A stretch of DNA of 63,338 bases, filler included, from Folioceros fuciformis (GCA_049999805.1; 6 parts of 6 records of this genome joined end to end with filler, not necessarily neighbours in it), one strand, 5' to 3'. Shown: positions 13,815 to 58,541, counted from the whole stretch's first letter. A program made the numbers and translations. Notes: generated from the sequence alone by a model not told the origin.

Positions 13815-13823
13815 ATCTGGCTC

Positions 13824-34439: not shown

Positions 34440-34453
34440 GCGCGGTGCGCTAA

Positions 34454-34732
34454 TTATTGACTCCGGGTTGTGAACAAGTCACGCATCAAAGCGGTTATGA
34501 TTTCCATCTGAGATTCGAGACAAATTATCTAGATTCGGAGATGATCTTCAGAGAGAGAATCGTGCGGGCGGTCCTGTTCATTAGCAGGTGAGCGTAGTGG
34601 AAGGAAGACTGTTCTGGTTCGGTAGGATTCACAGAATTCGGTACGCTTATTGCAGTTGTTGCAGGGCGCGTTGGGAAAGCGCGGTGGCCGCGCTTGCGAT
34701 GTGCGAATGGGCTGCACCTTACTCCGAGGCAT
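34454..34732 (-). pseudogene. ORF0 of copia F, 92 codons, one internal TAG
   Basis: MPRSKVQP...RFPNAPCNNCNKR...LRI*IICLESQMEIITALMRDLFTTRSQ*; homologous to ORF0 of H. Confidence 0.7.
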
Positions 34733-35087
34733 CTCGCAGATTCAGGGTCAGACGTCGGAGTTGCTGTGCTTGGCACCCTGAGCCATAAAAACCTGGTTGT
34801 CGCTGCGTGCGGACGTAGGTCACACGGGGCGTCGAGGCTAATCTGCACGCCAAAGAACCATCTGGCTCTGATACCATAAAGCCGCAATGTATATGGTGCA
34901 AAGATGTGCGTACTGACTAATTAAGTTCGGGGTCTTATATACACGTTACCGTATTTAGTTGAACCGTAATTAACTATTTTATAGTTTGTAACTATGCGAA
35001 CCGCTAATTCTCATAACTAGACGAACCGTGCCCTAATCCCATCGAGTCTCCGTTCCGTCAACGTGTCGCTATTGTCACAACAGCTTG

Positions 35088-35810
35088 ATGGTAGAGCGTT
35101 GCTGATGCTCAAATAGCATCATACTTGGAGCCATCGGTTTACGTTGGTTGCCCCTCTGTAGTCCAGCCATCTAGTGATTAACATATGCGGTGCAAAAATT
35201 AAAAAAGGATATGGTTCCCTCTTGTTGACTACCTGGCTGTTTGGGCCATCTAAAGAGGTTAGGTCACATGGTGAGCTCCCAGTTCGTTACAAGGTGAAAC
35301 CAGCACCGGTTGAGCGGCTTGCTTACGGACTTAAGCTCTCTAGGCACCTCTTCCTCAATGAGCCATCTAAAATGGGTGCAGGATAGCGTTCAGAGCCAAC
35401 CGGGTGAATATCGTAATGGGCCCTATTCACTTGCCGCCAAACATCCAGTCCTCTTGACCTTGGCCATGTAGAAAAACCTTTTGGGAAAGCTACCTTGAAA
35501 GACTGTACAACTTTGTGGTCACTATTGTGGGAAATGAAAACTGCTCTGTCAAATTCTGGCAAAGCCAGGTCCTCATCCAAGTCTTCCTCACCCTCCCTGC
35601 CTTCCATTGAATGAGCTCCCCACGTTGCCACTCCCACCATAGCTTGTGACTTCAGCGCTTGTCTAACTCCTTCATCCATACCACATTGTAACCAACTGCA
35701 ACTGATTCTGACATGACAGGTTGGAATGTCAAACTCCTCCCTAATTGTGTTCGGCTCCTTCCAACACTTTTATGCCCTTTGCCATAAGTGACCAACAAGA
35801 TGTCAATAGG
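35088..35810 (-). mobile_element. LINE continuation on the other side of copia F
   Basis: LALPEFDRAVF...VQSFKV; the empty-site sequence GGAGCTTGATGG matches the LINE near 11330. Confidence 0.8.
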
Positions 35811-35820
35811 ATCGACTCCA

Positions 35821-35967
35821 GTCCTCAAAATCTATTCCATATGTCTGGGCATATCCCTTGGCCACAAGCCTTGCCTTGTACTTGTTGATACTACCATCTG
35901 CGTTGTGTTTGACCTTGTACACCCATTTGCAACCTATTGGTTTCTTGCCTTCAGGTAGTTGTACTAG
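35821..35967 (-). mobile_element. Isolated copia RT fragment
   Basis: [17 protein letters not shown]...[18 protein letters not shown]. Confidence 0.85.
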
Positions 35968-36067
35968 NNNNNNNNNNNNNNNNNNNNNNNNNNNNNNNNN
36001 NNNNNNNNNNNTTAATTAATTAANNNNNNNNNNNNNNNNNNNNNNNNNNNNNNNNNNNNNNNNNNNN

Positions 36068-36343
36068 TATATCTTTAATTAATATTAAACTAATCACCCA
36101 ACCCTATGGCCTTGTACCGAACCTAAACCTTCCCAGGTCTGGGACCAAACCTATACCCACTCTTATAACCAAACCCACTATTTCCTAGTCAATTAACCCA
36201 ATTAGCACAAAGAAAAATAGGAAAAATAACCAGAAAATCAAGGAAAATTAGGAAAAATAAGTTGAAAAAGAAAACCAAACCATATCACTATTAACCCTTT
36301 TTCAACCAAAACAAACTACTACCCCAAACTTTGGAGGTTCACA
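36068..36343 (-). repeat. LTR end of family X, inserted in copia G
   Basis: Near-identical reverse complement of 58289-58541; terminus TGTGAACC; borders a gap. Confidence 0.8.
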
Positions 36344-36909
36344 CTGCTGCTACGGAAAGTCGCGATCTTCACATCGGTGGTGGCGCCGCGACCTGGATTT
36401 CTTCACAAGCATGGTGCAATCTGAAAGCAACGGGTTTTCCAGCCAAGGGCGCTCACAGAATGATAGAAATCGTGAAGAGGAATCCCAAGGCTCCTGCAAA
36501 TCTGCAGTGCCAGAAAAAGTTTGGCCAACCACGGCGCACAGGCGCGCGCTGCTGAATTTAGCCTGCAGGTGGAGACGCGGGTGGAGGAAAGAGAAGATGA
36601 CAGGCCGCTGACTGTGGAGGAGTATAGAGAAATGCTGAGGGAGCTCGAAGCTCAAGGCCTGTACACACCAGGGACGAAGAACGCATGACACTAAGGTGAG
36701 GACAGTCTCGTGATAGCAATCTCCATGTCACAGGATTAGGTAATAGTGAGGCTTCATCCGCTGAAAAACATGGAGACTGATGGTGGCCAACCTAACAGAT
36801 TGTGTTCCCACTGCAGGTGAACAAGACAACCAAGCTGGAAAAAGGGTCACAGTAGGGAGACTAGCTCTGTTGCAAACTCTGTGGGGCTGTCCACCATGTA
36901 AGCATTCAA

Positions 36910-39900
36910 TCAGGCAGTAAAATACTTGCTGAAATCTACGAGACCTAAACCCTCTACATGCGTCTGATGTTTGTGTTTGGGCAGTGGTTTAGTGAGGACA
37001 TCAGCCGTATTTCTGTCAGTGTGGATATAAACAGGGCTGACAATTCCCCTAGCCTTAACATCCCTAACGTAGTGATGTGCAATTTCTATATGTTTCGTTC
37101 TAGCGTGAAACCTAGGACGATCAACAAGGGCTAGGGCAGATTGATTATCACAGTGCAGTGTAGTAGGGAGTAGCTACTCACAGTGCACTGAGGAGAGGAA
37201 AGAGCGTGCCCATTCAGCTTCTTTCGCAGCATTGGTGAGGCATTTATATTCTGCTTCAGTGCTTGAGAGGGCAATGCTGCTTTGTTTCTTACAGCTCCAT
37301 GTAACGGCTGCAGAAGATAAGAAGAAGACATATGTAGACAAGCTCTTGCGTGTGTCCCCATCAGATGCCCAGTCAGCATCAGCAAAGGCTGACAAGGTAG
37401 GTGTTTCTCCTGTTCTTTTGTAGCATAGTCCATAATTATGTGTCCCCTTCAAATAACGAAATACTCGTTTGATGGCAGTCCAGTGATTACGGCCAGGACA
37501 GTCCAGAAATTGAGAGGCTGTGTTCACAGCATATGTGATATCTGGCCGAGTCCAATTACTTACAAACAATAAGCTGCCGACTGCGTGCCGGTATGGGACA
37601 TCTTTCATATCAGCAATGTCAGCAGCTGAAACGGGACTGTCATCCTTGGTGAGTTTGACACCACTTGCACAAGGTGTGTTGGCAGGATGTGCATTGTCCA
37701 TGTTAAAACGTTGGAGAATTTCTGAAATATATTTACGCTGATGGATAATGATCAACCCCTCTGCACGTACTCTCAATACTTGTATACCAAGACAAAATTT
37801 CAGCTCCCCTACATCTGTCATTTCAAATTCTGTTCGTAACATGTCTTGAACTCGTGCTAACAAGTGGGTATCATTTCCAGCAAATATGGCATCATCAACG
37901 TAAATAGCCAGAAGAACATAAGAGGTGCCATCATCATAGATGTAGAAAGAAGGATCTGCAGGGCTCTGTCGAAATCCAAGGCCCTTTAGGCAGGTATCCA
38001 GTCTTGCATTCCACCGTTCTGCACTTTGTTTAAGGCCGTAAATGCACTTAATAAGCTGACACACATAGTCTGGATGATCAGGGTCTTCATAGCCTTCGGG
38101 CTGTTCCATATACAATTCTTCTTCGAGTATCCCATGTAAGAAGGCCGTTTTCACATCCATTTGCTGCAGTTCTAAGTCACGCTCAGCAGCTAAAGCAAGC
38201 ATGAGGCGAATTGATTGAGAGCGTACCACTGGAGAAAATGTCTCTTGGAAATCCAGACCAGGTATTTGTGTGAATCCACGTGCGCAGAGCCTTGCTTTAT
38301 AACGTGCTATGTTACCATCAGCATCTAACTTATGCTTGAATACCCCAGGTTATAGGTTTGCGCCCCTTAGGACGAGGAACAAGTTTCCAGGTACCATTTT
38401 GCATAAGACTGTTGAATTCATCATCCACAGCATGCCTCCATTTATCTCTATCGGGACCTGAAAATGCTTCTTTGAGAGTGACAGGCTCAGGAGGGATAAT
38501 GGGCAAAGAGGCATTGTGGACAGATGGGATACAGACTCCCACTGACTTACGAAAGTCGATAGATGTGTAACGGGGCTCTAGCCATTCAGAGGGAGGGCAA
38601 TGAGCACGTGTAGACCTACGTACAGGTTCATGTGTAACATCAGCTGAAACTGGCAATGCTGGTAATGTCTCTTCTTCACCAGAAGAATCAGAAGATTGGG
38701 AAGAACTGTCAAGTTCAGGTTCTGATTCTACGGGGTTAACTGGATTGTGGGGAAGATCATGATCTGAATTTTCAGCATTGTCATGTGCAGATTCTACATC
38801 AGGCTCTGCATCTAGTGGAGTATCAGCTGGAGGAGCAGGTGGGAACATGACACCAGCATCAGCTTCACCGTCAACATCATCTGGATACTCACCAGAATTT
38901 TCAGAATACAATTGGCTGGTAGAATCCCCCAAAGTGCTTGGTAAATAAGGAGGATCAGCTGATGATGGAACCAAATGCTCAATAAAGGTAACACTACGGG
39001 CTACCACCGGCTGTATATTGTGCATATCAAGAAGTTTGTAGCCCTTAGTCACTTCACTGTAGCCTACAAATACAAGCTGTCTCGAGCGATTGTCAAGCTT
39101 ACGTCTCTTCTCTGCAGGCACATAAGCAAAGGCCCGAGAACCAAATATGCGAAGATGTAAAAGACTTGGCTTTCTATTCCAAAAGAGCTGAAAAGGTGTG
39201 CCACCAGGAACAGAACGAGAGGTAAGGCGGTTCAAAATGTAGGTTGTTGTGACAACAGCCTCAGCCCAGAAAGGATTGGGCAGTCCAGACCATAAAAGCA
39301 TGGAGCGCGTCATCCCCATCAGAGTCTGGTTCTTTCTTTCCGCCACGCCGTTCTACTGCTGCGTGTATGGAACTATCAGCTGATGGATAATGCCTTGTGT
39401 TTCCAGGAAATGCTCAAAGGCAGAGCTTGTAAATTCCCCTCCGTTGTCGGTGCGGAACATCTTCAGCATGCGACCAGATTGCCTTTGAACAACCAACAGC
39501 CAGTCTTGAAATATCTGAAAGGTGTCACTCTTATGCTCCATAGGGTAGGTCCATGTATATCTGCTATAGTCATCAGTGAGAGTAAAATAATATAATGCTC
39601 CACCAAGAGATTGTTCTTGAAGTCTCCCACTAATGTCAGCATGTACTAACTCCAGAACTGCCGTGGATCGAAATGCAGGAACTGTAGGAAAAGGAGTCTC
39701 CCGCTGTTTTGCCAAAGCACAAACTTCGCATATGGGTAGATCTTTGAAACAGCGAGGAAGAGGCTCCCTGTAACAGTCCTGCCTTGATAAGTCAACAAGT
39801 TTAGAACGGTTTGCATGCCCAAGGCGGGCATGCCAAAGTATAGCCTGCTGAGCTGTTGTCAAGGGACCAACAGCTGTTGAATTTACTTGTTCACGGCGGA

Positions 39901-41251
39901 TACAAGAGATATCCAGACGATACAATTCTGAATCTAGGACAGCTTTGAAAATACAGCGAGAAGGTGAGCTACGACGAGCAAAGCAACATGTGGTTTCTGA
40001 GACTGTAAGTATGAGGTCCTTCATCTGCATTATCTTGCTAAGTGACATTAAATTTTTAGCCATCTTAGGAACATAAAGAACATCTGGTAAAACTAAGACA
40101 GTATCATCATGAAGTGGGAACTTACAGATGCCTTTACCATGTATGTGCAGACTGCTGGAACTGGATTCATCACCTAAGAACACTCGTTCAGAAATAGTGG
40201 TAAGGGTCAAGCTAGTGAATTGGAGCTCATCACGACATATGTGAGCGGTGGCACCGCTATCAAGGTACCAACTGTCTACCTCACTCGTTTGAGTGCTCAG
40301 GCAGAGTGTTAATATTTTCACAACTGGTTTGCTTGACTGAGGTTCGGAAACCTTTTCTTTTGATTGTGATGTGGCAGGTGCAGCTGTAGGTCGAGGTGTT
40401 GCCCGCTGAGGCTCCCCGGCCTTTTTCTTTCTGCACTCTCTGGCCCAGTGCCCAGGAGTCCCACACCAATTGCAGTTACCTTGTCTCCTTGATGCAGAAG
40501 GTTGAGTGGCATTGCGCTGAGCAGGTGGTTGACCTCTCCCTCTGCCTCTCATGTTGAATCGACCCCCTCTTGTCGCAGAAAAAACTTTGTCAGTTTTAGA
40601 ACGGCTGTGTTGTCCCCTTGATGACATTTGGCGGCTCATTTCCTCTTGATATAGAGCCCCAATAACATCTGTGAGCTTGACACTCTGGCCGGCAGCTCGA
40701 ATGGGACCATTTTGCGTGGTGACAAATGTCTGGTAACTAGGAGGCAGGCTGGTGAGAAGTTGAGCTACCGCATCCACCTCTTGCATAGTTGTGCCAAGAG
40801 CAGCCATTTGAGCACGCAAGTGCCTAAATCGACTAGTGAATGCTGCAACAGAATCTCCTTCCTTCATGCGCAAGGTATAAAATTGCTGCCTTACTGCGCA
40901 TAAGCTCATCATTGTTTCAACTTTATAAGTTCCTGTAAGCTGATCCCAAATTGCTTTTGCATTGGTGAGAAACTCGACTTCAGGGACAAGATCAGACTCA
41001 AGCCCATTGACTAGGAGGGCTACAGCAATTCTGTTCAGGTTATCCCATGCATCTTTCTGTTTTTGAGTAACAGTAGCTCCTGCTGTTGTAGGATTAGAAG
41101 GAGTGCCGGGATCTGGGTTTGTCCCATCAACTACATCCCAGACTCCACAAGTAAGTAAAGTGGATTTCATCCTAACACTCCAAATATCAAAACGCGTGCC
41201 ATTAAATCTGTCTGTACTCTTAAGATCAGAGGTAAAAGTAGGGGCTGACAT
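36910..41251 (-). pseudogene. copia G gag-pol
   Basis: CNWCGTPGHWAREC, WYLDSGATAHIC, RTDNGGEF, YVDD, ADADWA, LSSTEAEY; two stops and one frameshift. Confidence 0.95.
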
Positions 41252-41603
41252 GACTGTATGTGTGCAGGTAGCTACAGCTGTACAACAAAAAAGATGGAGG
41301 CAGCAAGCAAAGACCAACTAACAAGGAAGACGTAACTAATGCAAAAAATGAATAGTAACCATTCAAATCTTAGTGTGTAACTGTCAAGATACGAAACGTG
41401 CCCTAAAAAATATAAACTAGGGCTAAAGGAAGGAAAGCAGTTGGGATTCAGCAGAACATGAAGGGAAGCCTACAGGTGACATACTCAGGTAACCCTAATC
41501 GTCTCTTCATATCTGCAATCTGTGGCTGGAGCAATTGAGCAGATACTGCAATCCAGCACCAAATCCCTAATTGCAACTCCTCTCCTTGTGCAGCGGAAAC
41601 AAA

Positions 41604-42247
41604 TCACAGGATCGTGATAGGTGGGCAATCATGCCCTGAAGATTTAGATTCTCCTGAAATGAATGGTGACTCCGCCTTCAATTTCTCAAGGGGAGGTAAA
41701 TTAGAAGCTCCAAGTAGAAGTAGCAATTGATTGCTGATACGTTGCAAATGACCAGAGTATTCTTCCTTCAAAGAAGAAAGTGCATGTTGAAGGCATTTCT
41801 CTTGTTCATGCATAACCTCTAAAAAAAAAAATCATGTTTTGCGCGCAATTGAGCCACACGTGTCTCAATACGATTATAATAAAATTCCACCACAGAATGA
41901 GCATCTTCATAATCAGGATATTCAAAATCAGAATCTTCTGAAATAGCATCATCAAGAAACTCCAAATTAGACTGAAATTTATGATTTTCAGGAACTGGTT
42001 TTGAGTGGCTCCTGGGAGCCCCAATCTCTTGATGCCTATTCCTACTTTGCTCCCGCGTCAAGTTGCGGAGCCTTCTTTGTTCTTGCAATTGCCACTTCCA
42101 AAATTGTCGTAGTGAAACTCGATAATTATTGAATGTCTCATCGGTCCATGGCAATTTAGGAGTGGGTGGAGGAATATGTGATTCACGCTGGTGCCTTGGA
42201 GGAAATTCACCACGCGAAGAAACACGTTCTCCACGACCACGTGGCAT
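41604..42247 (-). pseudogene. ORF0 of copia G, about 213 aa, frameshift at an 11-nt homopolymer
   Basis: MPRGRG...GEFPPR; ATG 35 nt after the PBS; helical IETRVAQLRAKH...LQHALSSLKEEY. Confidence 0.65.
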
Positions 42248-43420
42248 TGCAAGATACGAAGGATTCAAACACCATCAAGGCGCTCTGATACCATGCGGAG
42301 ATACCTCATGCATCTAGCAAGAAAGGCCAGCATGCAGAGGCATGCGAGAGCAATAGAACAAAACGATGTGTATTCAATAATNNNNNNNNNNNNNNNNNNN
42401 NNNNNNNNNNNNNNNNNNNNNNNNNNNNNNNNNNNNNNNNNNNNNNNNNNNNNNNNNNNNNNNNNNNNNNNNNNNNNNNNNCAGAGGCATGCGAGAGCAA
42501 TAGAACAAAACGATGTGTATTCAATAATAAGCAGAAAAATGTTATATACAAAAAGTACCCTATTAACCCTAAATAACATAACCTAAAAGTAAGTAGGGAT
42601 ATTTAACCGTCGGGGTTATTAAACCAACACGCCCGTGCCGCCACTGCCGTCGCAATGGTCGCGACCTTCCCTTCCATAGCGGCGGCCCTTTTCTTTTTCT
42701 CTGCAGGCTGGATTTGAAGCTGGATTGCTACGGGAATCGATGAAATTTCTGGTCAGGCACGCAGATTGATGATCCCGGCGGCTTGCCCTTCCCTCCGCGC
42801 CGTTGCAGCCATGGCTGCTATGGCGGCAGATCTTTCTCTTGCTATTCACAAAATCACGTTTTTGGTGGCTTCTCCTTGCATGGTTGTGACTCTGGAGATT
42901 CTGAATGGTGTGCTGGAGTGTGGGCACCCTATTCTTCTGACCTCCTTGGCTGGAATCCACGCACCAGAAGTTGGCATCAGTCCCTTCCTCGTGATTGCCA
43001 GCCCTTCCAGCTCTGGACTTCATAGCCGTATAGAGGTTCTTGGCAGCAGCACAGGAAAATCTCTCCCTCTCATCCCGATCCTGCTTGGAGGCATGGAGGG
43101 ATGCTCTGGTAGTTGTCACCATCTCCTCACCTGCAAGCATTTCCAGGATAAAGAAGATGGAGGACAACAATTTATCAAAGAGCAAGGAGGCAAGGGGAAC
43201 GTGACCCCAACAAACCGTCCTTGCCCTTGGACGGGGGTCAAATAAAATGATTTCTAAATTAGGTAATTAATTATCTATTAATTAATTTCATTTAATTGAT
43301 TTATAAATTAAAACACTTTTTAAGCTATTTTACTTAAGAACTAGATGTCACGTTTAGGCCTACTCAGGCTCTTTTTGAAGCTAGAAAAAAAAATCTCTAT
43401 TTTGTTACCCATAGTTTACA

Positions 43421-43684
43421 GTGAGTGGGAGTGATGAAATATAGTAGGTATAAGGCACTATTCACTAGGGCACCTTTACTTAAACATTATTAAATGTCTA
43501 GGGCAACAACTAGTTTCCTTAGGTATTTAGTAGTTAGTAGTTACAACAACTTATTGTTATAACAACTTATTGTTGTAACCGCCTTCTAGGCTTTTGTATA
43601 AACACTTATGCACTTTTCAATATGTAATGCAATCAATTCTCTACAAACTCTTTTGGCAAGTGTGTTCATGCATGATTCTCATTA
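43421..43684 (+). mobile_element. PPT plus 3' LTR of an unidentified element
   Basis: GAGTGGGAG followed by TGATGAAAT...GATTCTCATTA; termini resemble the LTR at 44628-44849. Confidence 0.55.
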
Positions 43685-43718
43685 ATCTGTGCTGGCAGAG
43701 TACTAGCCAGCAGAGGGG

Positions 43719-44415
43719 GATAGAGCTGCAACACCATCATGCAGTGTTTAATGAGTGTGTAATGTAGCATGGTGTGAGTATTGTTAACTAATGAACCATG
43801 CATAAGTGCGACGTTTAGCAGCACGACACGATAGTTGTCAAGCATGATTGTGTGTTGTTGCTTAGATACATGCAAATAGTCATTAGTTAATAATTAAATG
43901 ATGCTAATAAATGGTATTAGTGGTAATTAATAATTATTTAATGAAGATTATTAGAAAATATAATGTAATATAAAGTCAACTAGAAATGTAAATGTGGCTA
44001 CAACATGTCTTAAGTAGCAAGCATAAAAGCCTAGGTTCAATGGTGTTCACTACAGTTGTAAGCTTGCATTCTCTTGGTGTGGAACAGGCTTCTCTTGAGG
44101 GAGCATTCTCTTAAGTGCATCCTCTTGAAAGTGCATTCTCTTGTTAGAAATCTGGTTGAGTTGTGCATGTGTGTAGTGTGCAGTGTGCAAGACTATGTGA
44201 TCCGATCGAGGATTTGAGAAGCCAAGTTACAACTCTGAGATGTATGGATGCAGGTCGAGGAGATTTTGTGGTGTCTAAAGGAAGCAAACGCTTCACTCTT
44301 GATAGAGCTGCAGCACCATCATGCAGTGTTTAATGTGTGTGTAATGTGGCGTGGTATGAGTATTATTAACTAATGAACCATGCATAAGTGCGATGTTTAG
44401 CCACACAACATGACA
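43719..44415. repeat. About 700-bp unit bounded by about 113-bp direct repeats
   Basis: 43719-43831 matches 44301-44413. Confidence 0.7.
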
Positions 44416-44615
44416 TCATGGAGAAAGAACAAAGTATTAGAACATAAAAACATTATAAGAAGAGGGAAGTCAACATAAAAGAGATGTGAAGAGAAATAGA
44501 ATTTGTAGAATAAACACAATCCATCTAGCCACTTACTAACTAGATTGGAGAGTGTCTCCTATACAAGCTCCTCATATAGAAGAAATTACATAAGCAAGAA
44601 CAAAAGAGCAAGCAT

Positions 44616-44849
44616 GCTCTAATACCATGATGAGAATCAAGCACTTGCTCTCAGCAATGTGTGTTCTATTACAAAATAGAAAGATAGATTCTGCCTTTAA
44701 GTAGGCAAAGCAGTTAAAACTGCTAAGTGGTTAGAACTAATAACTAATAACTTCTTAAGACAACTACTTAGTGCCCTAAAATTAATTAATTATATAATGT
44801 TCTAGGTGCCCTATTGAACAGTGCCCTAAACGTAAGCTATTTCATCGCA
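44616..44849 (-). mobile_element. 5' LTR plus PBS of an unidentified element
   Basis: PBS TGGTATtAGAGC at 44616-44627, adjacent to an LTR ending CA. Confidence 0.6.
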
Positions 44850-45659: not shown

Positions 45660-48280
45660 GGAATATGGACGAAAGAGACAACGACAATTTCAAGAGGATG
45701 TGGAAGCCAACATTGAACTTGACTCACCACCCTTAGCCACTGATTCTGAAGGAGAGGAAGTGCTCGACACAAGATAGATACCCCTAGGGTAGTCGTACGT
45801 TGTGCCACTCTTGGGACAATCTAGTACCCAACAGCAAGTGGTGCAATCACTTGTGGGACAAACCTAAGTTAGGTATTTCAAGGATTTTGGCAACATGGAG
45901 GGAGGAGGTCCATACAAGCATGAGAAATTCTCAAGAAGGCTTAGCACCCAATCCCTGAGCGATTTCAAGCTTTTTCTCAATGCCATCTCAGCTGGCTCAA
46001 GTTCAAGTATGGTACCTCATACAACAACTAGTATGTGTTTCAGAAATTGTCTTACCACTTGACGGATGAAGTGTTGGATTTGTAGGAAGTGCACCAGGGT
46101 GATCTTTCCATTACTGTTGCAACGCCTAATCCAACATTTCAAAGTGCTTTGTAGTTGGCATGCCAAGCTGGCAATAATAATCAATACGTATCAAGTAGGC
46201 ATTGTTGCTAGCACTATTGCTGCTACTACACAGCCACCAACGGTGGTGAGCTTGACTGCAGTTGAAAGACTAGCAGCCGCTATGGGTGTAGATGAATACA
46301 TGCACACACCCAAATACATGAACCTTATTGAAGAGTTGATGGGAATCCTAGATAAAGCCTTCCCACTAAAGACTCTTGAAAAAATTGTAAAGCTCCTTTG
46401 CACATAAGAAACGGAAGACAGTTCAAATGGCTTTTCAAAGGTTGCAGAAGTTGCGTGAAGGCAGAAACCAAGAGAATAAGGCACAGACCAAGAGGCAGCA
46501 GAAAAATTCTTGACAGTGCTAGAGGGGGACTCTTTGTTTCACTTTCAACTTGTCACCTCCCCGATGGACAAGTATGGTGATAGGTATACACTTGAGCATG
46601 TCCATGAAGAAGCAGAGTGCAAGGAGATTGCATTTTCTGCCAATGCTTCCTGTCATTCCAAGGCTTTCACTCATTATTAGTCTATGGTCAGTAGCAAGAG
46701 GATAATTGGCAGAAGTGGGACTTTTGGATCAGCCAAGAGTAACCACGCCACAACAGCTAAGGTCAATCCTACAGTGACTACATAGATCACATGCAATTGC
46801 TGTGGGAGTCCCAAGCACTTGGCATCAACATGAAATTGTCCTCAAGCCGGATTGGTGTGCACACATTGCCGCAAGACAGGTCACCTTGAAACAATGTGTT
46901 TTCAGAAGCATCCTAGTGGGGAGGAGCTTCAAATGTAGCAAGAGCACGCCCCAACACAAGTGCTTCAAGAGCTTCATCAACAAGACCCAGCCACAATTTC
47001 ACACAACAAACAGTACTGTAATAAGGTCAAGGCCAAAGGGGTGGCAACCATTGAAAAAATTGCCTCCCTCAAGGCATCTATTGCAGCCCTCACCGCACAC
47101 ATGAGCACTCTTGTGGCCAATCTCAACTATGGTGCTTCAACTACGGCCTCCAAGCCTGTTGGTGCAGCCGCATTGGTTACCATGATAAGTGGGGAGGAGG
47201 AGGATTACGGACCTCCACACCAAGCATGCACAAAAAACTGTTTGCACAGCGTGGAACCTTCTTCAACCCTGCCAGCCACATGGGTGGGCCATGAATTGCC
47301 CTCAGCTATCATGGATGTTGCGTTTGGATCTCCTAGACCAGCCTTGTGAACTTTGAGGGGCACGCGCAGCCATCCCTCAATCCTTCAACACACTACCTCC
47401 ATGAGCAGCCATTCCCATTTGAGGGCAAGACAACCTTCGTGGAGATAGTGTGAGTCTAGTTCGCTCCAGTAATGGCACTTCACATGATTTAGCCTACGGT
47501 CAGCTATCTCTTTTGCCTCCAATATTGAGCGCTAAGTAGTTGGCTAGGAAATTGACAGGACATAAATACCTGTGTTTTCACTTCAAGACATGGGCTTGAT
47601 TACTGCAAGGCTAGGCCAAGTGTTGCAGACAAGGACAGTGCAAGCACCCAGCAACAGGCCAGCCCAAGTAGTTGTTTTGGAGGACTTTGTAATGGGTGCA
47701 TGTATATGGCCTAGTTCTAGCTAGTTAGAACCACTTACCGTCCCGAGACAATTGGAATTGATCTCTTCTGAGGACAGCCAAGGGGTGTACTCCACATAGC
47801 GAACTCCCACTAGCCAAGCTCACCCTCGAATTAAGCCAACCAATTGGTTGTCACTCAAGTTTTGAAGGCTGTAGTGGATAATAGGACAAGACATGTGCAA
47901 ATCAATGGATATGCTCCCAAGCTTGTCCTCCTTGACACTAGTGCATAACCCGTGATCATTGGCAAGACTTTAGCAACTCGATTACGTCTACATGGTCCAA
48001 CCTTGCGTCGCTCACCTTGGAAGATTCGAACAATATTAGGCTCCTTGGCACCAATGTGTGGGAAAACCCTGCAACCTGTGGCTATCACTTTGAAGTGTGG
48101 AACAGATGCTGCCATGACCTTGGCCCTTCAATGCCTTATCACATCAACAACCAACTACAATGTCCTTTTGGGACAAGAATTTCTATTTCCCCTAGGGGTA
48201 AGTGTGGATAATTGGATTGAACAGGCCTCCTATTGACCTGATTGGAGAAATGGGAGACAACGCATTGCTTATAACCCACT
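45660..48280 (+). mobile_element. Decayed gypsy-like gag-protease
   Basis: Double knuckle remnants (CNCCGSPKH, CTHCRKTGHLETMC) at about 46795-46900; protease LLDTSA*PVIIG near 47930. Confidence 0.6.
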
Positions 48281-50555
48281 AGACTTGCATGGTAGCATTG
48301 AAGTAGATACTGTCACATTGGCAACATCCTAGGTGTTGATGATTACATGTGTGATAGGATAGGAGCACACTTGAGATAGTCAACAATCTCCACAAACTTG
48401 AGAAAAATCTGCAGTCTTCGTATACTTGGGACAATCTTAGTCCTAGTGCTTCAGCCTTGCCACAATTAATAGCCATTCTACAAATTTGAACACTAGAGAC
48501 TTGTTGACAAAGAATTTGCCTTCTAACAAACATCACTTTCATAAGGAGCCTATGGACATCCAGGCTTGCCCTGATACATCTTAGCAGTGTGGCTGCTCCA
48601 CGACAATTGCCGAGCATAGTGGATGAACCCTTCTTGTCATTTAATTGCATGCTTTTGCAGTTCTCTACATGTAGCCAACTACTCATCTAGAGGCCGTGGA
48701 CGAGCGGCATCATATTTGAAGCTCTCCATCAGCATTTTCTCCTCGACGTGTGTTGGCTCTTCTCCTTCTTCCCTCACGGCGATAGATATCTAGAGCCAAC
48801 ACTCTTAGCTCGCAACTTGCCACCTTTACTTTTGTTGCGAGCTCTCTCAAGTTGTTGTGGCTCAGTTGATGTGCTCTTCCTTTTGTCCGTCTTCTGCTTC
48901 TCCTTTGTTCTTCCCGCTTATACTGATACCACGATGACGAACGTGCATAGTGATAGGCATTGAATTAGCGAGCGCACCATGGCACAATCCTATGCCTAAT
49001 CTACCAGCGTGCTCCGTTTACGAGGGCGTATTAGAGTAAACCTATTCCGTTAGTGTTTGTCATGTAAATGTATTAGCAAGTAGAGTTAGGGTTGCTAGTG
49101 TTGGTTATATGAAGAGACATGACTTTTGGTATATGTGATGTATACATGACACTTCTAGAATACATAGTTATCTTTTTCATTTGTGTAATTTAACAATCCC
49201 AAGCCTACATGAAGGGTTATTCATCATCTGCTTTTGTGGTAACTACTCGCTACTATGGAAAAAGAAAACAGAAGAACCTATCATCTCCGAAACATGGGGT
49301 ATTGTGATAGCACCTTACTTACTATGCCCCTTGAACTTTAGCATCTCACATGCCCCCCTCCCTACTTGTTTGCTACCCACAAATAATAAGCCTAAGGTTG
49401 GAAGTGCTTTTTAACCTTCCATCATCCATTTACTTTTGTAGGTAACAATTCTCCTCCTAGATCCTTCAACTATAGTAATATGTTCTCATAGATGATCACC
49501 ACTTCATAGCAACACAATTGTAACTTCCCAAGAAAGGAAAGATATCTACTACCGTAGCAAAGTACTAAGTAGTCTCCCCCGTAGTGATGTTGTTTTGTCC
49601 TTGTAATTGGCTGTTACATTTATGCTACTGAAGCTCTTGTACCCTATAGGTTTCTCCAACACTTCTTCCCTATCCTCCTTGGACGTTATGAATGATTCTA
49701 ACCTAGCTGTTTGATTGTCCTCTACTGTCGTTTGGGTGTCTTCTATAATCTACTGTGAATTATAATACACAAATCTGCCAACTTGAATAAATTGTGAAGG
49801 TCCAAAACGGCTGGGAACCAACGCTAGCTGTGTTGTGAGGAGCGTTATTGTTTATGTAATTTTACGTAGTCCGGCTCTCCGGTCTCCTTATGATAGAGGG
49901 AAGATTTGGTCTCCGTTCACGTCTTCAACAAAACGTAAAACGCTTGTAGTTTTATATTTTTGTCTCTAGATGGTATTTGATTGGCTGTTGTGCTCGGTGC
50001 TATCCCCATCTCCTGATCCCCATGTTTGCTTCTCCATGTACGCATCATATGTACCCGCCCCCGGTCACATCTAAATTTGCGATAATCTCCATGGTTCTTC
50101 GTCCCCTAATAATGCTCTCATGCATGCCTATCCAGGTACTAAAAACCTCATAGATATTGCGGAGCGAGCACTTGCCTGTATGTGCTTTGGAGGTACCAGT
50201 ACTCTCTACATAGATGTACGTGCCTGGAGGTACCAGTACTCTACATAGCGTTCAACGTTCAAGTCTGCTTATACTGCACTTGTCAGATTGGGTGTTCTTG
50301 AGGAATCTGGCACGCATCTCAGGAAACCTCGTCCAACAGGAAGTGCAATTGAAAACCAGACACTAGTTCTAGCAGTTCTGTTGATCGTGGTTAGTAGACA
50401 ATTTGTTTCGTAGTGCAAGGAGTCTCTTGTGAGGGCCTCTGTAGGTTTGGGCGAGTGTCCTCGGCGTAGTGAGAATCGGGAGGGCGAGGAAAGATCCATG
50501 GTGCTGTGATAGCGTCAAAGTAGTGCGGATCGTGCAGCAGGCCGAAGGTCGAAAG

Positions 50556-53500
50556 ATGCGGTGGTACAGGCATTTACTTGCATTATGGGTTATAGTTGGC
50601 GTGGTGAGTTCCTGTTTCTTGTTCTACTGGCTCGATTCATCGAACTCTGAGCGCCGCCAGGAGACGCTTTCTAGTATGTGTGACGAGCGTGCCCGAATGC
50701 TACAAGATCAGCTTGTTGCTAGCATGAACCACGTACGAGCCCTCACTGCACTCGTTACCACATTCCATCTGGAGAAGTACCCGTCAGCGCTTGATCAAGT
50801 GAGCACAATCAACCTCTGGATGTGACAGAAAAGTAGTAAGGGGCAGTGTGTGAACGAAGGTCTGATAACTGTGCAGTGTGTACACGTAGGCCCCTCTCCG
50901 AATGTGGATCGCTGGGACAGGTAGGTTTGTTTTCCTTGCTGTCACTTGGTTGTTCACAATGGTAGTCCTGTTTCGCTTGGCAGGATACCTTTGCCACTTA
51001 TGCCTCCAGAACTGCATTTGAAAGGCCTCTCATGAGCGGGGTTGCCTATGCCCAAAAGGTTTTACATGAGGAAAGGGAGGCTTTCGAGAGAAATCAAGGG
51101 TGGAGCATAAAGAGTATGCATTCCAAAAAGTCACAAATTTCACAGTATGAATATGCACCGGCCACTTTGACTCAAGATAGTGTTGGCTACTTGACTTCCC
51201 TGGACCTAATGTCTGGGCAGGTGAGGCAAATTGTAATAAGGTCACTGAATTTGATTTACTGCGTGCGACATGACTTGAACTGTTTGCCAGCTCATGGGTT
51301 GGTTCAAATCTTTGAACAGGAAGACCGCGAAAATATTCTTCGTGCAAGGGCTTCTGGCAAGGGTGCGTTGACAAGTCCTTTCCGGCTGCTGACTAATCAT
51401 TTGGGCATTGTTTTCACATTTGCCGTTTACAGTGAAGACCTTCCCTTGGATGCCACTGTTGAGCACCGTATTCAGCACTGCACAGGGTATGTTCATTTAC
51501 TATAATCACATACGGGAAAATGGGGCTCTTGGGTTTCTAGCATCGTATGTAAATTTCTCATAGGAATCGCACCAGAGGTAAATCTCCGCTAGTCGATTCA
51601 TCTTCAGCAATGTTTGGAAATCACTCAACCTTGTAGTGTCTTGCAACAAGTAGTGGTCTGACGCGTTTGTGCTGGCATGTTATTTGACTAGTTCCAGTAT
51701 GTTTATCGGTCTGGTTCTACATACTTACAACAACAACCTACCATTGATCTGATGCTGCAGTTATCTTGGAGGAGCTTTTGACGTTGAGTCTCTGGTAGAA
51801 AATTTGCTTCATCAGCTCGCTGGTAGCACTGCAATTGTCGTGAATGTGTATGATATAACCAACCAGTCTGTGCCACTGGTTATGTATGGGTCCGCTCCGG
51901 ATGATGAGCGGTATCATGTGAGCAGTCTAGACTTTGGAGATCCTATCAGAAGGCATGAAATGCGTTGCAGGTACAATCAGGTCCTGTCTGAGGCTCTAAC
52001 TAAGCACGTCCTTCACAACTGTGTGCTGGCGATGAATTTTGATCCATGGTCATGTGCATGAAAAATGCTATTACTGTCCACGCAGGCTGGTGGACCCTCG
52101 ACCAATGTCATGGGCAGCCTTATGGGCAGCTCTTGGATTGTTGGTGATTTGTCTGCTAGTTGGACAGATTGGCTATGCTGCTGTTCGAAGGATCACTCAA
52201 GTGGAAGAGGATTATAAGAAGATGGAGGAGTTGAAACTACAAGCTGAATCTGCTGACGTTGCAAAGTCTCAGGTAAGCTGTATGTATGATCTCNNNNNNN
52301 NNNNNNNNNNNNNNNNNNNNNNNNNNNNNNNNNNNNNNNNNNNNNNNNNNNNNNNNNNNNNNNNNNNNNNNNNNNNNNNNNNNNNNNNNNNNNATGATCT
52401 CAATGCATATGTACATCAAGAAATGCAGGTGCAGAAAGGACGAGGAGAGGGGGGGGGGACGTGGGGTGTGGGGGTTGCGAGAAACTGACATTGGTATGCT
52501 TATATGTTGCAGTTCCTTGCTACTGTTTCCCATGAGATACGCACACCTATGAATGGCGTTCTTGGTGGGTTCCACCTCATTGCCAATGGTTTTGGAGAGT
52601 GGGTTAAGTCTGTAAGATGTGAGGGTCACAACTTGCTTTGACTGGTCGTGGCCTAAAGTTGTTGGCTCCAAGCAGGAATGCTGCAAATGCTCATGGACAC
52701 AAAGTTGGATCCAATGCAAATCGACTATGCAAGAACGGCACAAGCAAGTGGGCAGGCATTGATAACACTGATAAACGAAGTCTTGGATCAAGCAAAAATT
52801 GAATCTGGGCGACTCGAATTAGAAAGTGTTTGCTTCGACCTTCGTGAAGTTCTGGATGATGTTTTGTCATTGTTCTCATCGAAGGCCAGTGAAAAGCGGA
52901 TTGAAGTACTTGTTCCTACCCTTCGACCTATCTTCTGTTGCAATCTAGTCAGATGTACCCTTGGATAGACGGTACCCACAGTCTCCTTGACCCTTTTTTG
53001 TGTGGTGGATGTTGCCTCTCTATCATTGATACGAGAAGCTTGCAGTGTATGTATCAAAGCGGGTGCCGGAGATTTTAGTTGGTGATCCTAGCCGGTTTCG
53101 ACAAATTATCACAAATCTGATAGGGAATTCAGTAAAAGTAAGTATGATCATCTTCTTCCTTGGATTTTGTTGTGATTTTTGGCAATGACTGCAAAGTCCT
53201 GTACACACTGTAAGGCAAGCGTATCTCAAATTGTGCGTAGGCTTAACTCTCTGGACTGCATTGTTATTTGTTTTCACAACCGTGAAAGATGTGTGTGGTG
53301 GTGATGACCCACTAGTGATTTGAGTATTATTCTCTATATTTCGAGGATGTGTCTTTTTCTCACCAGTCAGAAGGCGAAATTTGGAATTTCATGACGCTCA
53401 GAAGCCGTCCTTGTCCATGTTGAGCATATGTTTGTGTTTTTGGTTTGTGAGGAAGTTCGTTAACAAAGCTGAATGTTAGTGGCAAGAGGCACATTTAGGC

Positions 53501-55412
53501 GTGGTAAAGGGTAAAGAGCGTCATTAGCATGGGGCCTCTGATTTACCCAAATCCCGGGGACCTAACAATGAGAATTCCATGCAGTTCACCCAATATGGGC
53601 ATGTTTTTCTGTGCGTTCATCTAGCTGAAGATATGGAGGAATTGCAAGAGTTAATTGAGAAAGATAGATACAGTGCTTTGCAAGACCTCGAGGAGGATAG
53701 CCAGGGCTCTTGGAATACCCTCAGTGGAGTCAGAGCAGCAGATAGACGATATTGTTGGGAGTTTTTTAGGGTGCTTCTGCAGAAAACGGATGCTGAATCA
53801 AATTCAGCATTACAAAGGTCTGAGGAGAACGTGCAAAGTCAGTGTGACCTTGCGGACAAAGTCAAGTTGCTCATTAGTGTGGAGGACACAGGTGTTGGGA
53901 TTCCCTTTCACGCACAGAGACGTATTTTCACTCCTTTCATGCAAGCTGATAGCTCAACCTCACGGATGTATGGTGGCACTGGAATTGGCTTGAGCATAAG
54001 CCGTTGTCTAGTTGAGCTGATGAGTGGGAAAATGTGTTTCGTCAGTTTACCCAACATTGGGACCACGTTTTCGTTTACTGTAGCATTAAGGAAGCCTCCT
54101 CATGCCATGTGTCAAGATGTCAAGTCAGTCGTGCATGTCTCTAAGTTTGTTGGCCTGAAAGCCCTTGTTTTGGATGGAAGAGATGTTCGTGCATATGTGG
54201 CGCAGCAACAGTTACACAGAATAGGGGTGGAGGCGCATGTAGTAACAGACATGCAGTCTGCTAATGCCCTGCTGGCAGGAGAGCATGACATGGGAAGCAC
54301 AATTCCTTCCTGGTAATCTGTTCATACTGAATACTTGGCACTGCTGGGTGCGCTAGGAGGGGATTACTGATTCTTGTACTAACTTATATTTTTTGCTTTC
54401 AGTTCCACAGGCGACCTTGATATGGTGTTTGTTGACAAAGACTCATTTGGTCCTGGCTCTGGCCTGACTTTGGCCCTGCACTTCTATATCTTGAACAGCA
54501 GTGCTAAACTGGCTGGAAATCCACCAGTGTTCATCATTCTTGCTACTTGCTACACGGATGAGGAGGCAGAGCAGGTAAAGAAAGCTGGGCTTGTGATAAT
54601 TCGGAAACCCCTTCGAGCAAGCATGCTTGCAACTAGTTTGGAGCAAGCTTTGGGTATGTTGGGTAGAGGTGACGATAGGCGGGAGCCCTCGGAAGCATTT
54701 ATTGCTCTAAGGAACCTCTTCAATGGAAGACATCTACTGGTTGTAGATGACAATGTGGTCAATCGCAGAGTTGCTGCAGGGGCCCTCAAGAAGTATGGAG
54801 CTAAGGTTGACTGTGTGGAGAGTGGAAAGGCTGCCATCAAATTACTGCGGCCACCTCATAAGTTTGATGCATGCTTCATGGATGTGCAGATGCCTGAAAT
54901 GGACGGGTATGTTAACTCCAGGAATAGATATTGGATTTAGGCTACCTTCTTAGTTCTGCCACTTAGCATTAATAGTCTCCTGTTTTCTACCTTGTCTGGA
55001 ATTCTTGTGACAGCTTGGAATCCTTGTTCGTATTGCAAGATGGCATGCGTTGTCAGCAGTTGCTCGATGTAAATGTCATCTTGGTCTTTTTCTTGTGTGC
55101 AGCTTTGAAGCGACAAGGCTGATAAGGAAAGAGGAATGGGCAGCGGTTGTGAGTCCATCGCCTGGGAAATCTGGAGATCAGGATGGTGATATCCATAAAT
55201 GGCACACACCTATTTGGGCGATGACAGCTGATGTTATACAAGCCACTCATGAGGAATGCTTGCGTGCAGGCATGGATGGCTTTGTAGCAAAGCCTTTTGA
55301 TGAGAACAAGCTACATCAAGCTGTTCTTGGGTTTTTGACATGCAGTTCAAACTGCACAAAGTTCATGAACCGGCAGTGGCATATAGCGGACAGAGCTTTG
55401 GATGCGAAGTAG
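50556..55412 (+). CDS. CHK: CHASE-domain hybrid histidine kinase, cytokinin receptor (AHK2/3/4-CRE1 family), about 988 aa. Exons: 50556-50798, 50984-51220, 51320-51486, 51761-51970, 52086-52272, 52513-52564, 52676-52905, 53039-53137, 53585-54312, 54403-54906, 55103-55412
   Basis: MCDERARMLQDQ; CHASE domain; TM; H-box FLATVSHEIRTPMNG; G-boxes DTGVG and GGTGIGL; receiver VVDDN...MDVQMPEMDG...KPF. GT-AG introns sum to 2967 nt in frame. Start codon is inferred. Confidence 0.95.
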
Positions 55413-57063
55413 CTTGTGGTGCAGAAAGGTCGTGTCTTTGTCCTTCAGAATTCATTTTGCAAGGTCTTGATCTCCTTGAATTCAATGTCTAGAGGTTTTA
55501 CTGCTTGGAGATGCAGATGTCCAATGTTCACTTCTACATTTATAAATCTGTAGATGTGAAATAAATCTACGACGGTGAGTGGCGTGGGCTAACCCTCGTA
55601 AGCGATAAAGTTTGACATTCCTGATGGAGCAACACATTCCATACATTCTATTTCCTTCATAATTAGGGGAAATATCAGGGCCTTCGTGGCAAGTTTTGGG
55701 TTAGGCAAATGTCATTCGTAGTTAAACGGTTACATGACTGCACCAACGCCCGGCCTATTAACGCTAGTGGGTGCTCTGACTATACGCGGGATAGAGAACC
55801 AGTTCTCCCTCCCATCTCCCACTTCAGGCATAAGATCAGTGCACAGATCTCACACCTAATGGCCCGAAGAGGCACCAGCGCCTCCAACCAAGGACCAAAT
55901 GACTCGAACTAAATCTTGAAAGCCGTAGATCTCTTCTAGAGTAGCTTACCTCAATGAAGTCGACAGAAATAGATGACAATATAAGTTATGACACAAATGA
56001 ATTTAGATGTAAAAAAAAAAAAAAAGTAAAATATTAATATAGTACCTGCCTTAGTGAAGATGCATTTATTGCATGCTTTTAGTAAATCCCCAAAGAGAGG
56101 AGTTGTGTTGCATGCTTCATGCAAAACTCCTAGAGAGGAGTTGTGGCAACCATTCTTGAGAGGACTTTAGGAGATGAATAGTATGCATGAATTCCAATAT
56201 TAGCAAGTATCTATTTCAGGCCTACTTGTGAGGTTTATAAGAGCTAGAGCAAAGGCATGTCCAAGTCCAATTGAGACATTGCCACGAACAGTTGTTCATG
56301 TCACAGTTTGGTGTTACCCTTTTAGGACCAACGAGTGTAGTAGTCCTATAAAACAAATTCATGCCCTTATTGCATCCAACACATTAATGCAAGTTGGACC
56401 CAAGTGGCACCAAGTTGAAATTTGCAACAGAACTCCTTGCCCTCTGCATTATGATTGGTTTAAGAATTTCGATATAGTTGGGTGGCTTGTAGTGTATCCC
56501 CTCCTAAGCTCGGTATAATATCCCCTTCAAAGTCATACAATACATCTCACATTGTAGGATACGTCTCGCACTTCGCCTTCCCCCTAGGCAATTGTGGTGG
56601 CAAAACCCCCTGGCATTGTTTGCCAAAGGATTTGACCTTTAGTGTCCACACTTATGCCACTGTCGTTGAGACATTGGGTTTCATTCCCATGAAGGAGCGA
56701 TGGGGTTCCTCGCTGTTATGGATGGAGGGTCGGACTTAATCAACTCGATGTCGGATTCGAGGGCTCCCCTCTAACTCTACTGAGGCGTGGAACAGTCCTC
56801 GTTGTCCAGCGGTCGACTGCACCTCTCTCGGTGCCTACAAATTCACTCCAACCACTACAACGACATTAACCTCTCATGTCCACGACTTCCCTCACTCACT
56901 TCACTCACTCACTCCAGCACCAACACCAGCAACAACACCACTACCTTCTACACTTCCCTATTGACTCCTCCACTTGAAAGAGTCACTCGTCTAACCCCAA
57001 GGAAGAGAAAGAGGAAAACACACTCCCCTCTTAGATACCTCGTCCCCACAACCTTTTTTTTTT

Positions 57064-58288
57064 TGTTACCACCAAGGTGGCACCGACAGAAAAGAGTAAG
57101 AGAAGTTTAGGGCACAGTTCAGTTTAGGGTTATATAACTAACCTCAGCAGTTATTAGATATAGTTAAGACGATCAAAACAGTTAAGTAGTTTAGGCAGTT
57201 TAACCGTGGCGGTTTAACCGCTAACTAGGGCTATATAAAACAAGCCCTCAACAACAATAAATCTATCTTTTCTTCTCCCATAGGTTTCTAAATGGTATCA
57301 GAGCTGCGTTGCTCCTCGCTGCGCGTTTCTCGCTTCTGCACTCAAGGCCTGAGCCTCTGAACCTAGGCCCCATGGCGCAAAGCAAGGCACGCTGAATTTC
57401 GAGCAACCGATCCTGAATTCCCCGTGAGATGCCGCGATGACGCATGCTACCCTCCAGCGCATCACGGGCGCCGCAGCCACGCCCAGCACCTGGACCCTGC
57501 AACCACCACACAAGGTGCTAAGTACACGGTGAATTCTCAAGACCCCACCTCGAATTCTTCCCCGAGGGTTACCTTTGAATCCAAATCGTTCAGCTCGAAT
57601 CTCAGATGGAAATCATAATCGCCATCATGCGCGACCTGTTCGCAAGTCGCTGCCAGTAAGCCGGACGTCGCATACGCCCTCCTTCGATCCCTTATTGAAA
57701 TGCAATCTTCAGGGATGAAAGCAAAATCAATGGCAACCAATCCAGTCGTCAGTACGTCAATTGTCAATACCACGAAAGTGGAATTCAGGGACCGAGACCG
57801 GTTCACTGGCAGTGACTACGATACCTGGCAGATGCGAGTCATAGCGCTTCTGGAGGAGCACGACCTCATGGGAGTCGTCGAAGGTATAGTTCCCAAACCC
57901 TCGACTGCAGGAGGCGCCTCTGCCGACCAAATTGCAGCCTGGGTAAAGAAAGACAAGAGGGCCATCAGTATCTTATTTTCAGCACTAGACAAGAACATGT
58001 TCCAGCATACTCAAGGCCAGAAGACAGCCCACGAGATCTGGAAGGTGTTCAAGGACATGTTCGCAGCACAAAGCTCCATGTCAATAGTAAACGCCACACA
58101 ACAATTCTACCTACTGAGAATGAAGGAAAGCAAGAGGATTGAGAAGCATGTACACAACTTCATATCAACAAGAGCAAAGCTTGCATCTAGTGGTACCACG
58201 TTGAATGAGTACCAAGCAGCAGTTGCGTTACTAACATCCCTTCTTGCATCATATAGAACATTTGTAAGCTCGCAGAGCTCAGCCCTTC
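57064..58288 (+). mobile_element. Ty1/copia element H (relative of F), truncated by LTR family X
   Basis: LTR about 57064-57292; PBS at 57293-57304; gag 57700-58288 very similar to F gag. Confidence 0.9.
57429..57659 (+). pseudogene. ORF0 of copia H, 76 codons, three internal stops (TGA, TAA, TGA)
   Basis: MPR*RMLP...YL*IQIVQLESQMEIIIAIMRDLFASRCQ*. Confidence 0.6.
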
Positions 58289-58541
58289 TGTGAACCTCCA
58301 AAGTTTGGGGTAGTAGTTTGTTTTGGTTGAAAAAGGGTTAATAGTGGTATGGTTTGGTTTTCTTTTTCAACTTATTTTCCCTAATTTTCCTTGATTTTCT
58401 GGTCATTTTTCCTATTTTTCTTTGTGCTAATTAGGTTAATTGACTAGGAAATAGTTGGTTTGGTTATAAGAGTGGGTATAGGTTTGGTCCCAGACCTGGG
58501 AAGGTTTAGGTTCGGTACCAGGCCATAGGGTTGGGAAAGTT
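58289..58541 (+). repeat. LTR end of family X, inserted in copia H gag
   Basis: Starts TGTGAACC; inverted copy at 36068-36343. Confidence 0.8.

Follow-up and report, generated by a model that had tools for sequence, protein, structure and literature searches.

Copia elements and their leaders

We analysed a 63,338-nt stretch of DNA from Folioceros fuciformis (GCA_049999805.1), in which parts of six records are joined end to end with filler and which is referred to here as the window, and we concentrated on the leaders of two of its Ty1/copia retrotransposons, element F on the minus strand and element H on the plus strand. In both, a sense open reading frame (ORF) called ORF0 lies in the leader, between a primer binding site of the tRNA-Met type and gag. 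The comparison is made between these two copies, read across the whole window, which is crowded with Ty1/copia elements.

Element F (29506..35082, minus strand, 5.6 kb) is a complete Ty1/copia long terminal repeat (LTR) retrotransposon of the Pseudoviridae, bounded by 206-nt direct repeats (29506-29711 and 34877-35082) that are 95% identical and lie 5371 nt apart. Its gag-pol is interrupted and falls into three pieces (686, 605 and 202 codons); the first carries gag, Pol_BBD, gag_pre-integrs and rve (PF14223, PF22936, PF13976 and PF00665), and RVT_2 (PF07727) follows in the next piece downstream, which is the copia order gag-protease-integrase-reverse transcriptase. The primer binding site TGGTATCAGAGC occupies 34865..34876 (minus strand), immediately 3' of the 5' LTR. 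The same motif stands at 57293..57304 (plus strand), upstream of the leader of element H, a truncated Ty1/copia element that ends at the gap starting at 58542 and hence has no 3' LTR in the window. Nine matches to this 12-nt motif at one mismatch or fewer occur in the window, against 0.33 expected; we took it for a match to the 3' end of tRNA-Met following the portions available of PMC6317226 and PMC2829016, and a tRNA gene that could pair with the primer binding site was looked for in the window without success.

The gag of H is open for 187 codons (57730..58290, plus strand). The F triplet aligned with its start (34380..34382, minus strand) lies 69 nt past the ORF0 stop and is not a start codon in the window copy. 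Over 190 gag codons the two elements differ at a proportion of 0.62 of synonymous sites (pS), corresponding to a synonymous divergence (dS) of about 1.3 and a ratio of nonsynonymous to synonymous divergence (omega) of 0.08, which places neutral sites near saturation, and blastn finds no likeness between their LTRs. We read F and H as two copies, long diverged, of a single Ty1/copia lineage. Because synonymous sites in gag are near saturation, an unconstrained leader should be unrecognisable, and the likeness that the two leaders retain therefore indicates constraint.

ORF0 and a conserved block ahead of gag

ORF0 is separate from gag; the two frames are offset differently in F and in H. In F it extends over 34454..34732 on the minus strand, starting at 34732 (93 codons, including one internal and the terminal stop), and in H over 57429..57659 on the plus strand (77 codons, including three internal stops and the terminal one); the terminal stop lies 69 nt (F) and 70 nt (H) ahead of gag. 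A preliminary description of this DNA had taken ORF0 for a real protein, and most of the details that it gave were recovered: the two translations are exactly as reported, both frames begin GAG ATG CCN CGN and close with TAA at the same aligned codon, the quoted synonymous pairs (CGT GAC TTG / CGC GAC CTG, GCT / GCC and CAA / CAG) are present in the alignment, internal stops of one copy face sense codons of the other, and H has three stops in 76 codons. Two details had to be revised. The identical core, given as 20 nt, is in fact 25 nt long, and the middle of the frame, called unalignable, requires only a single 48-nt gap in MAFFT, the first 29 codons aligning ungapped at 56% nucleotide identity.

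The core belongs to a 52-nt block (34468..34519 on the minus strand in F, with the core at 34519..34495; 57594..57645 on the plus strand in H, with the core at 57594..57618) that is 86.5% identical between the copies and constitutes the only leader match at the blastn level when each leader is compared with the window (expectation value 6e-12). A 21-nt degenerate pattern likewise matches the window twice, in F and in H, and is absent from 100 shuffles. Several further collinear islands between the two leaders accompany the block.

The leaders also share four aligned ATGs, all in the frame of ORF0. The first opens a short upstream ORF (uORF) beginning M-A-Q, of 12 codons in F (34748..34786, minus strand) and 7 codons in H (57372..57395, plus strand); the two align in the ORF0 frame, with eight of their first nine nucleotides identical. 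From this ATG to the ORF0 stop, the MAFFT gaps measure 3 and 48 nt, both multiples of three, and a 1-nt gap appears past the stop. Degenerate tandem repeats were considered as a source of the in-phase gaps, and Tandem Repeats Finder detected none. The ATG within the core starts an internal ORF of 17 codons plus stop (34454..34507, minus strand, in F; 57606-57659, plus strand, in H) that is open in both window copies; its peptide is identical at 11 of 17 residues and its distance to gag is kept in these two copies.

Both leaders (34383-34864 in F and 57305-57729 in H) are GC-rich (54-56%), with an observed/expected CpG ratio of 1.05-1.07 as against 0.62-0.76 in the adjoining gag; the 206-nt LTR of F has 1.77 at 41% GC.

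A strand-specific motif array across the leaders

The leaders are strongly enriched in the hexamer GAAT[CT][CT]. F carries five instances (span 34511..34743, minus strand; starts at 34743, 34639, 34630, 34536 and 34516), one of them outside ORF0, and H carries six (span 57394..57602, plus strand; starts at 57394, 57415, 57531, 57552, 57577 and 57597), two of them outside. The expected numbers are 0.38 and 0.31, and no shuffle among 2000 attained both of the observed counts. Expressed as density, the leaders hold 10-14 instances per kb (10.4 in F), compared with 0.2 in the gag-pol of F and 1.16 across the window. All 11 instances are on the sense strand, between primer binding site and gag; antisense-orientation matches number one in F and three in H, and these are read as palindromic GAATTC instances. 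Four F instances are collinear with instances in H, and the core holds one full instance.

Conservation at the nucleotide level is most marked in the core, where none of eight third codon positions has changed compared with 12 of 23 in the flanks (Fisher 0.012; chance 0.018 at the third-position rate of gag). An exact run of 25 nt is likewise unusual under gag-like constraint over 99 nt (P 0.027). From the core, identity declines gradually and without a step at the stop codon (15, 12, 12, 9, 7, 9 and 9 in successive 15-nt bins). The preliminary description had itself raised the possibility that the core reflects an RNA element; the invariant third positions and the motif array speak for this suggestion, and the lack of a stable or covarying structure speaks against it. 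An intron, with a 5' splice-like site past the start of F and a 3' splice-like CAG at the core, was also considered and set aside, as H has no matching 5' site by eye. The 20-nt form of the core, scanned in metagenome and genome collections, gave six loci, all of them chance matches in bacterial sequence with no primer binding site nearby, and a search with the gag of H against viral contigs returned ten pattern matches, none of which was confirmed.

Substitution pattern in the ORF0 frame

The frame of ORF0 was examined by a simulation in which the observed transitions and transversions were placed at random and the resulting translations scored with BLOSUM62. In the ORF0 frame, amino acid similarity exceeded random placement both in the C-terminal block (P 0.013-0.032) and, separately, in the first 29 codons (P 0.022), whereas the other two frames gave P values of 0.12-0.99. 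The controls behaved as expected, with 11 of 11 gag windows of the same size positive in their true frame, none of 22 wrong frames positive, and none of six tests positive in the post-stop spacer and the pre-start stretch. Over the last 23 codons, omega is 0.21 in the ORF0 frame and 0.83 and 5.1 in the others. Compared with gag, ORF0 has a proportion of nonsynonymous differences (pN) of 0.16 versus 0.10 at a pS of 0.51 versus 0.62. The substitution signal favouring the ORF0 frame is real, small and weak.

Similarly placed upstream ORFs in other copia families

A scan of both strands of the window for ATG CCN (CGN/AGR) returned 14 starts encoding M-P-R, five of which, in families B (4327), D (13239), F (34732), G (42247) and H (57429), are in sense orientation and follow a copia primer binding site at a distance of 46-252 nt; the corresponding start in family A (2202) reads M-P-S. 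This enrichment behind primer binding sites has a P value of 8e-6, or 1.3e-4 when F and H are counted once and four independent families remain. The arginine codons include both CGN and AGR, a mixture that suggests conservation of the tripeptide and not of a nucleotide motif.

In four of these families a long ORF follows, with length P values taken against dinucleotide shuffles: 186 codons in A (2202..2759, plus strand, P 0.0003), 94 codons in B (4327..4608, plus strand, 252 nt past the primer binding site, P 0.018), 129 codons in D (13239..13625, plus strand, 205 nt past the site, P 0.004) and 142 codons in G (41822..42247, minus strand, 46 nt past the site, P 0.0003). Those of D and G are the longest ORFs of their leaders, and each of the four is the longest ORF of its own leader or located within it. 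Leaders measure 780-1230 nt in A, B, D and G as against 425-480 nt in H and F. The first 25 residues of these leader ORFs carry a net charge of +1 to +6, compared with a background of 1.2 ± 2.2. AlphaFold predictions made without an alignment show, for the ORF of A, disorder in the N-terminal half and a long helix in the C-terminal part (residues 113-185, predicted local distance difference test (pLDDT) up to 92), and, for that of F, a C-terminal helix at residues 70-90 (block-mean pLDDT 71-80 over residues 61-90). On this sequence evidence, a maintained upstream ORF in several copia families of this genome seems real, while its version in F and H is at best short and weakly supported.

Three further observations concern families D and G. 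In D (13239-13835, plus strand), the M-P-R ORF, a 60-codon stretch and the gag start share one frame, split by two stops. To the eye, the stretch after the ORF0 stop of D resembles the H block (7 of 17 positions identical, including the stop), but the resemblance is not significant (P 0.03-0.9). In G (41600-41830, minus strand), the M-P-R ORF stops at a T run and a 69-codon helix-rich ORF comes next in another frame; the first ORF may therefore be longer than it appears, with a frameshift that may stem from decay or from an error in the homopolymer.

Decay of the window copy of F

Contigs from three runs of one sample (X1-X3) span 33696-34608, are about 97% identical to the window and have a sense codon at the place of the internal stop of F (34531). 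Because of this sense codon, we regard the window copy as a decayed member of a family in which ORF0 is open over the part covered. The contigs also differ from the window at 34382, within the triplet aligned with the gag start of H. Among the 40 differences listed of 430 in total, nine lie in ORF0 and fall 6/2/1 on codon positions 1/2/3; six of the nine are transitions with T/A in the window and C/G in the contigs, which points to decay of the window copy and not to selection. A fourth run (X4) touches 3 of 30 bins, with pieces less than 90% alike. Over 33000-35082, most of the differences between the window and run X3 are C>T (124 places) or G>A (139 places), an excess that looks like a bisulfite-treated library, and its differences were accordingly not read as variants.

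Interpretation and alternatives

The reading that we favour is that F and H carry a small ORF0 that evolves fast and, at its 3' end, overlaps a cis-acting RNA signal in the form of a strand-specific motif array. It is partly supported and not proven, and we regard it as finely balanced, with a slight lean towards doubt. ORF0 would begin with M-P-R, have a basic N-terminus that is probably disordered and carry an amphipathic helix at its C-terminus, and the same kind of ORF would occur in several copia families of this genome, F and H having the shortest version, which may be open in the contigs of the F family and dead in the H copy. The five to six sense-strand GAAU[CU][CU] motifs spread over each leader would form the cis-acting signal, with the 25-nt core as its best-kept part and the array as a candidate binding site for Gag of the same element or for ORF0, in the selection or dimerisation of genomic RNA. 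The basic N-terminus suggests RNA binding and the C-terminal helix self-association. Translation of ORF0, any function of the protein and the binder of the motifs are what we infer here. The two lines of evidence, for an ORF and for an RNA signal, are compatible, since coding and cis-acting functions often overlap in compact retroelement leaders.

Several results weigh against this reading. The number of family copies in the window is only two, as judged by blastn of each leader. Differences between F and H in a frame-blind MAFFT alignment fall 27/25/35 on the three codon positions over the whole of ORF0 (p 0.38), 9/4/13 over the last 32 codons (p 0.10) and 11/12/15 over the first 29 (p 0.71), as opposed to 32/17/75 in gag (p 3e-10), so that 3-nt periodicity, which the preliminary description wished to see examined across more copies, is not significant in this pair and the codon-level claim is not established by periodicity alone; on the most cautious view of the simulation, taking the best of three frames in two blocks, its signal would arise one time in nine. 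On balance, the earlier case for a real protein is partly supported. The in-frame stops of H number three in ORF0 and none in 187 gag codons (3 of 9 versus 0 of 15 at-risk codons, Fisher 0.04), the leader of H is not depleted in CpG (1.05), and its gag has no C-to-T excess relative to F. One in-frame stop of H lies within the motif at 57577, and 3 of the 11 motif instances fall outside ORF0. The length of ORF0 in F, 67 codons, or 92 in the contig copy, does not stand out from shuffles (P 0.14), and the M-P-R ORF of H has 3 codons (P 1.0). Other frames are equally open (frame 1 of F for 116 codons and frame 2 of H for 83 codons without a stop), for which reason the openness of ORF0 itself says little. 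Between families, ORF0s have no detectable likeness beyond the first three codons, blastp matches being confined to gag, and when the C-terminal peptide of F and H was compared with 21 leader frames, matching stayed at the chance level (2 of 42 tests at P ≤0.05). No protein homologue was found for the ORF0s of F (with X at the stop), G and D in word-index searches, and a full HMMER search of 1.84 billion representatives gave zero homologues for that of A. On the RNA side, folding of the leaders is no stronger than that of shuffled sequences (z -0.82 and -0.71), the two together yield a weak consensus fold (-12.2 kcal/mol, with 4 of 27 pairs changed on both sides), and a search of the leaders in Rfam returned no match.

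The main competitor holds that the leader acts purely in cis, as a packaging, dimerisation or other signal made of GAAU[CU][CU] motifs, with no functional peptide in F and H and the ORF0 frame incidental. The enrichment and strand bias of the motifs and their occurrence beyond the ORF suit it well, as do the invariant third positions of the core, the gradual loss of identity across the stop codon, the lack of significant periodicity and the equally open alternative frames; the stop of H that a motif instance creates, one of its three, fits a priority of motif over frame. Against it stand a frame-specific substitution signal that appears in two separate blocks with clean controls, an M-P-R start common to families in which significantly long ORFs follow, four aligned ATGs in one frame, and folding analyses that showed neither a stable nor a covarying structure. 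We consider a purely cis-acting leader rather unlikely, while giving it serious weight. A variant in which only the last 17 codons are functional, as a conserved-peptide uORF about 70 nt before gag that would tune gag translation while the longer ORF0 is dispensable, appears improbable. In each window copy this short frame is intact even though the long frame is interrupted shortly before it, its stop-to-gag distance is kept (69 versus 70 nt), the coding-like signal is strongest within it, and uORFs of Rous sarcoma virus (RSV) are described in the part of PMC2657110 available as attenuating gag initiation. Against it, the 12 nt ahead of its ATG are as invariant as the codons that follow, the first 29 codons of the long frame carry a signal of their own, the M-P-R start common to other families is left unexplained, and the sample amounts to two copies.

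Two further explanations were weighed. Were the GAAT[CT][CT] array a set of transcription-factor sites downstream of the transcription start, acting on the DNA as a leader enhancer, a short repeated motif confined to a CpG-rich leader (observed/expected 1.05-1.2, as against 0.6-0.76 in gag) would be understandable; transcription-factor sites usually work in either orientation, however, whereas every non-palindromic instance here is in sense orientation, and the frame-specific signal would go unexplained, so that we regard an enhancer as very unlikely. The least probable explanation, in our judgement, is a chance match or a short patch of gene conversion between otherwise unrelated leaders: that only one block reaches blastn significance is in its favour, but the strength of this match and its absence from shuffles argue against chance, the block is collinear in position with several more islands around it, and a conversion patch would not hold seven differences in 52 nt skewed to third positions.

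In its widest form, this interpretation would have the copia families of this genome share a maintained accessory gene, with M-P-R, a basic disordered N-terminus and a C-terminal helix, whose evolution is so rapid that only the first three codons are recognisable between families; in F and H the GAAU[CU][CU] array would be read by Gag or by the product of this gene, which would then be a small factor that binds the RNA of its own element and associates with itself, in a role like that of Rev or LINE (long interspersed nuclear element) ORF1p. We put this forward as a doubtful extension.

Other features of the window

An AT-rich element (E) is flanked by a 94-nt direct repeat (18322-18415 and 25126-25219, 93% identical, 6804 nt apart) that probably represents LTR ends; it has a primer binding site at 25051-25062, a leader of about 1290 nt and a 127-codon ORF without an M-P-R start. 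A second, 113-nt direct repeat (43719-43831 and 44301-44413, 90% identical, 582 nt apart) lies in the leader region of an element with a primer binding site at 44616-44627. In H, likeness to the gag of F ends abruptly after 187 codons and stops then fill the frame (58291-58541, plus strand), as if some other sequence had been inserted or joined. Gaps at 7272-7371, 15858-15957, 25228-25327, 35968-36067 and 58542-58641 consist of 44 N, TTAATTAATTAA and 44 N, while those at 42382-42481 and 52294-52393 are plain runs of 100 N. From these five TTAATTAATTAA-bearing gaps and two plain runs, the window is read as a scaffold of eight contigs, with H cut by one gap.

Comparison with known systems and significance

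The nearest described case is ORF0 of the rice Ty3/gypsy family Retrosat2; no relation in sequence came to light, Retrosat2 itself not having been compared directly. According to the portion of PMC3485330 available, this ORF, shared with RIRE3, RIRE8 and grass homologues, lies upstream of gag-pol with its function unknown, diverges at a nonsynonymous rate (Ka) of 0.257 versus 0.078 in gag-pol at similar synonymous rates (Ks), is not recognisable between families and has no homologue elsewhere. The ORF0 of F and H is likewise upstream of gag, faster than gag and without a homologue found. The systems differ in kind and scale: Retrosat2 and its relatives are Ty3/gypsy elements exceeding 12 kb, their LTRs measure 3 kb and their ORF is far larger, whereas the elements described here are represented by a 5.6-kb Ty1/copia element with 206-nt LTRs and ORFs of 77-190 codons.

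Extra ORFs in a 5' forward position are a recognised class (eORF-5'F) in the survey of Neumann et al. 2019, whose text, as far as available, describes heterogeneous, fast-evolving extra ORFs that mark lineages such as Ogre/Tat and SIRE (PMC6317226). As that survey counted only ORFs of at least 250 codons, ORFs of the size seen here would be missed; the only Ty1/copia lineage feature named in the text available is the 3' ORF of SIRE, and its figure 4 and supplements may list more. A review of additional ORFs records that upstream ORFs exist, with no copia example in the passages available (PMC7264820). For copia elements, neither a short 5' ORF nor a motif array in the leader turned up in our literature search, which was limited and does not prove that none has been described.

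Two other leaders offer points of comparison. In RSV, short uORFs that precede gag and follow the region of the primer binding site lower the rate of initiation at the AUG of gag, to an extent that depends on distance, according to the part of PMC2657110 available. F and H resemble this arrangement in their four aligned ATGs and the kept distance of 69/70 nt to gag; RSV is an animal retrovirus, whereas F and H are known here from sequence alone. RSV uORFs are conserved in position rather than in peptide. The Ty1 packaging and dimerisation signal is described, in the portion of PMC6844567 available, as a cis-acting RNA between the primer binding site and gag or reaching into gag. The motif array of F and H likewise lies between primer binding site and gag on the genomic strand, but it differs in that no structure or palindrome is shown for it, and it is a candidate for binding only. 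In retroviruses, repeated short motifs are bound by nucleocapsid; to our knowledge, GAAU[CU][CU] matches no described signal. With ORF0 of LINE-1, a primate-specific antisense ORF in the 5' untranslated region of a non-LTR element, the likeness is one of name only, ORF0 here being a sense ORF of an LTR element.

Most additional genes described in plant LTR retrotransposons come from large Ty3/gypsy elements or from the 3' end of SIRE copia elements, and no function is known for them. Should only the RNA interpretation hold, the leaders of F and H would supply a candidate signal for packaging or regulation in a plant-type copia family, a setting in which signals of this sort are poorly defined. 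If the favoured interpretation is true, a short, maintained 5' ORF in several copia families that overlaps a strand-specific motif array would be a compact, testable case that could show how elements select or regulate their own RNA, and size cut-offs in element surveys would be hiding a class of small accessory genes.

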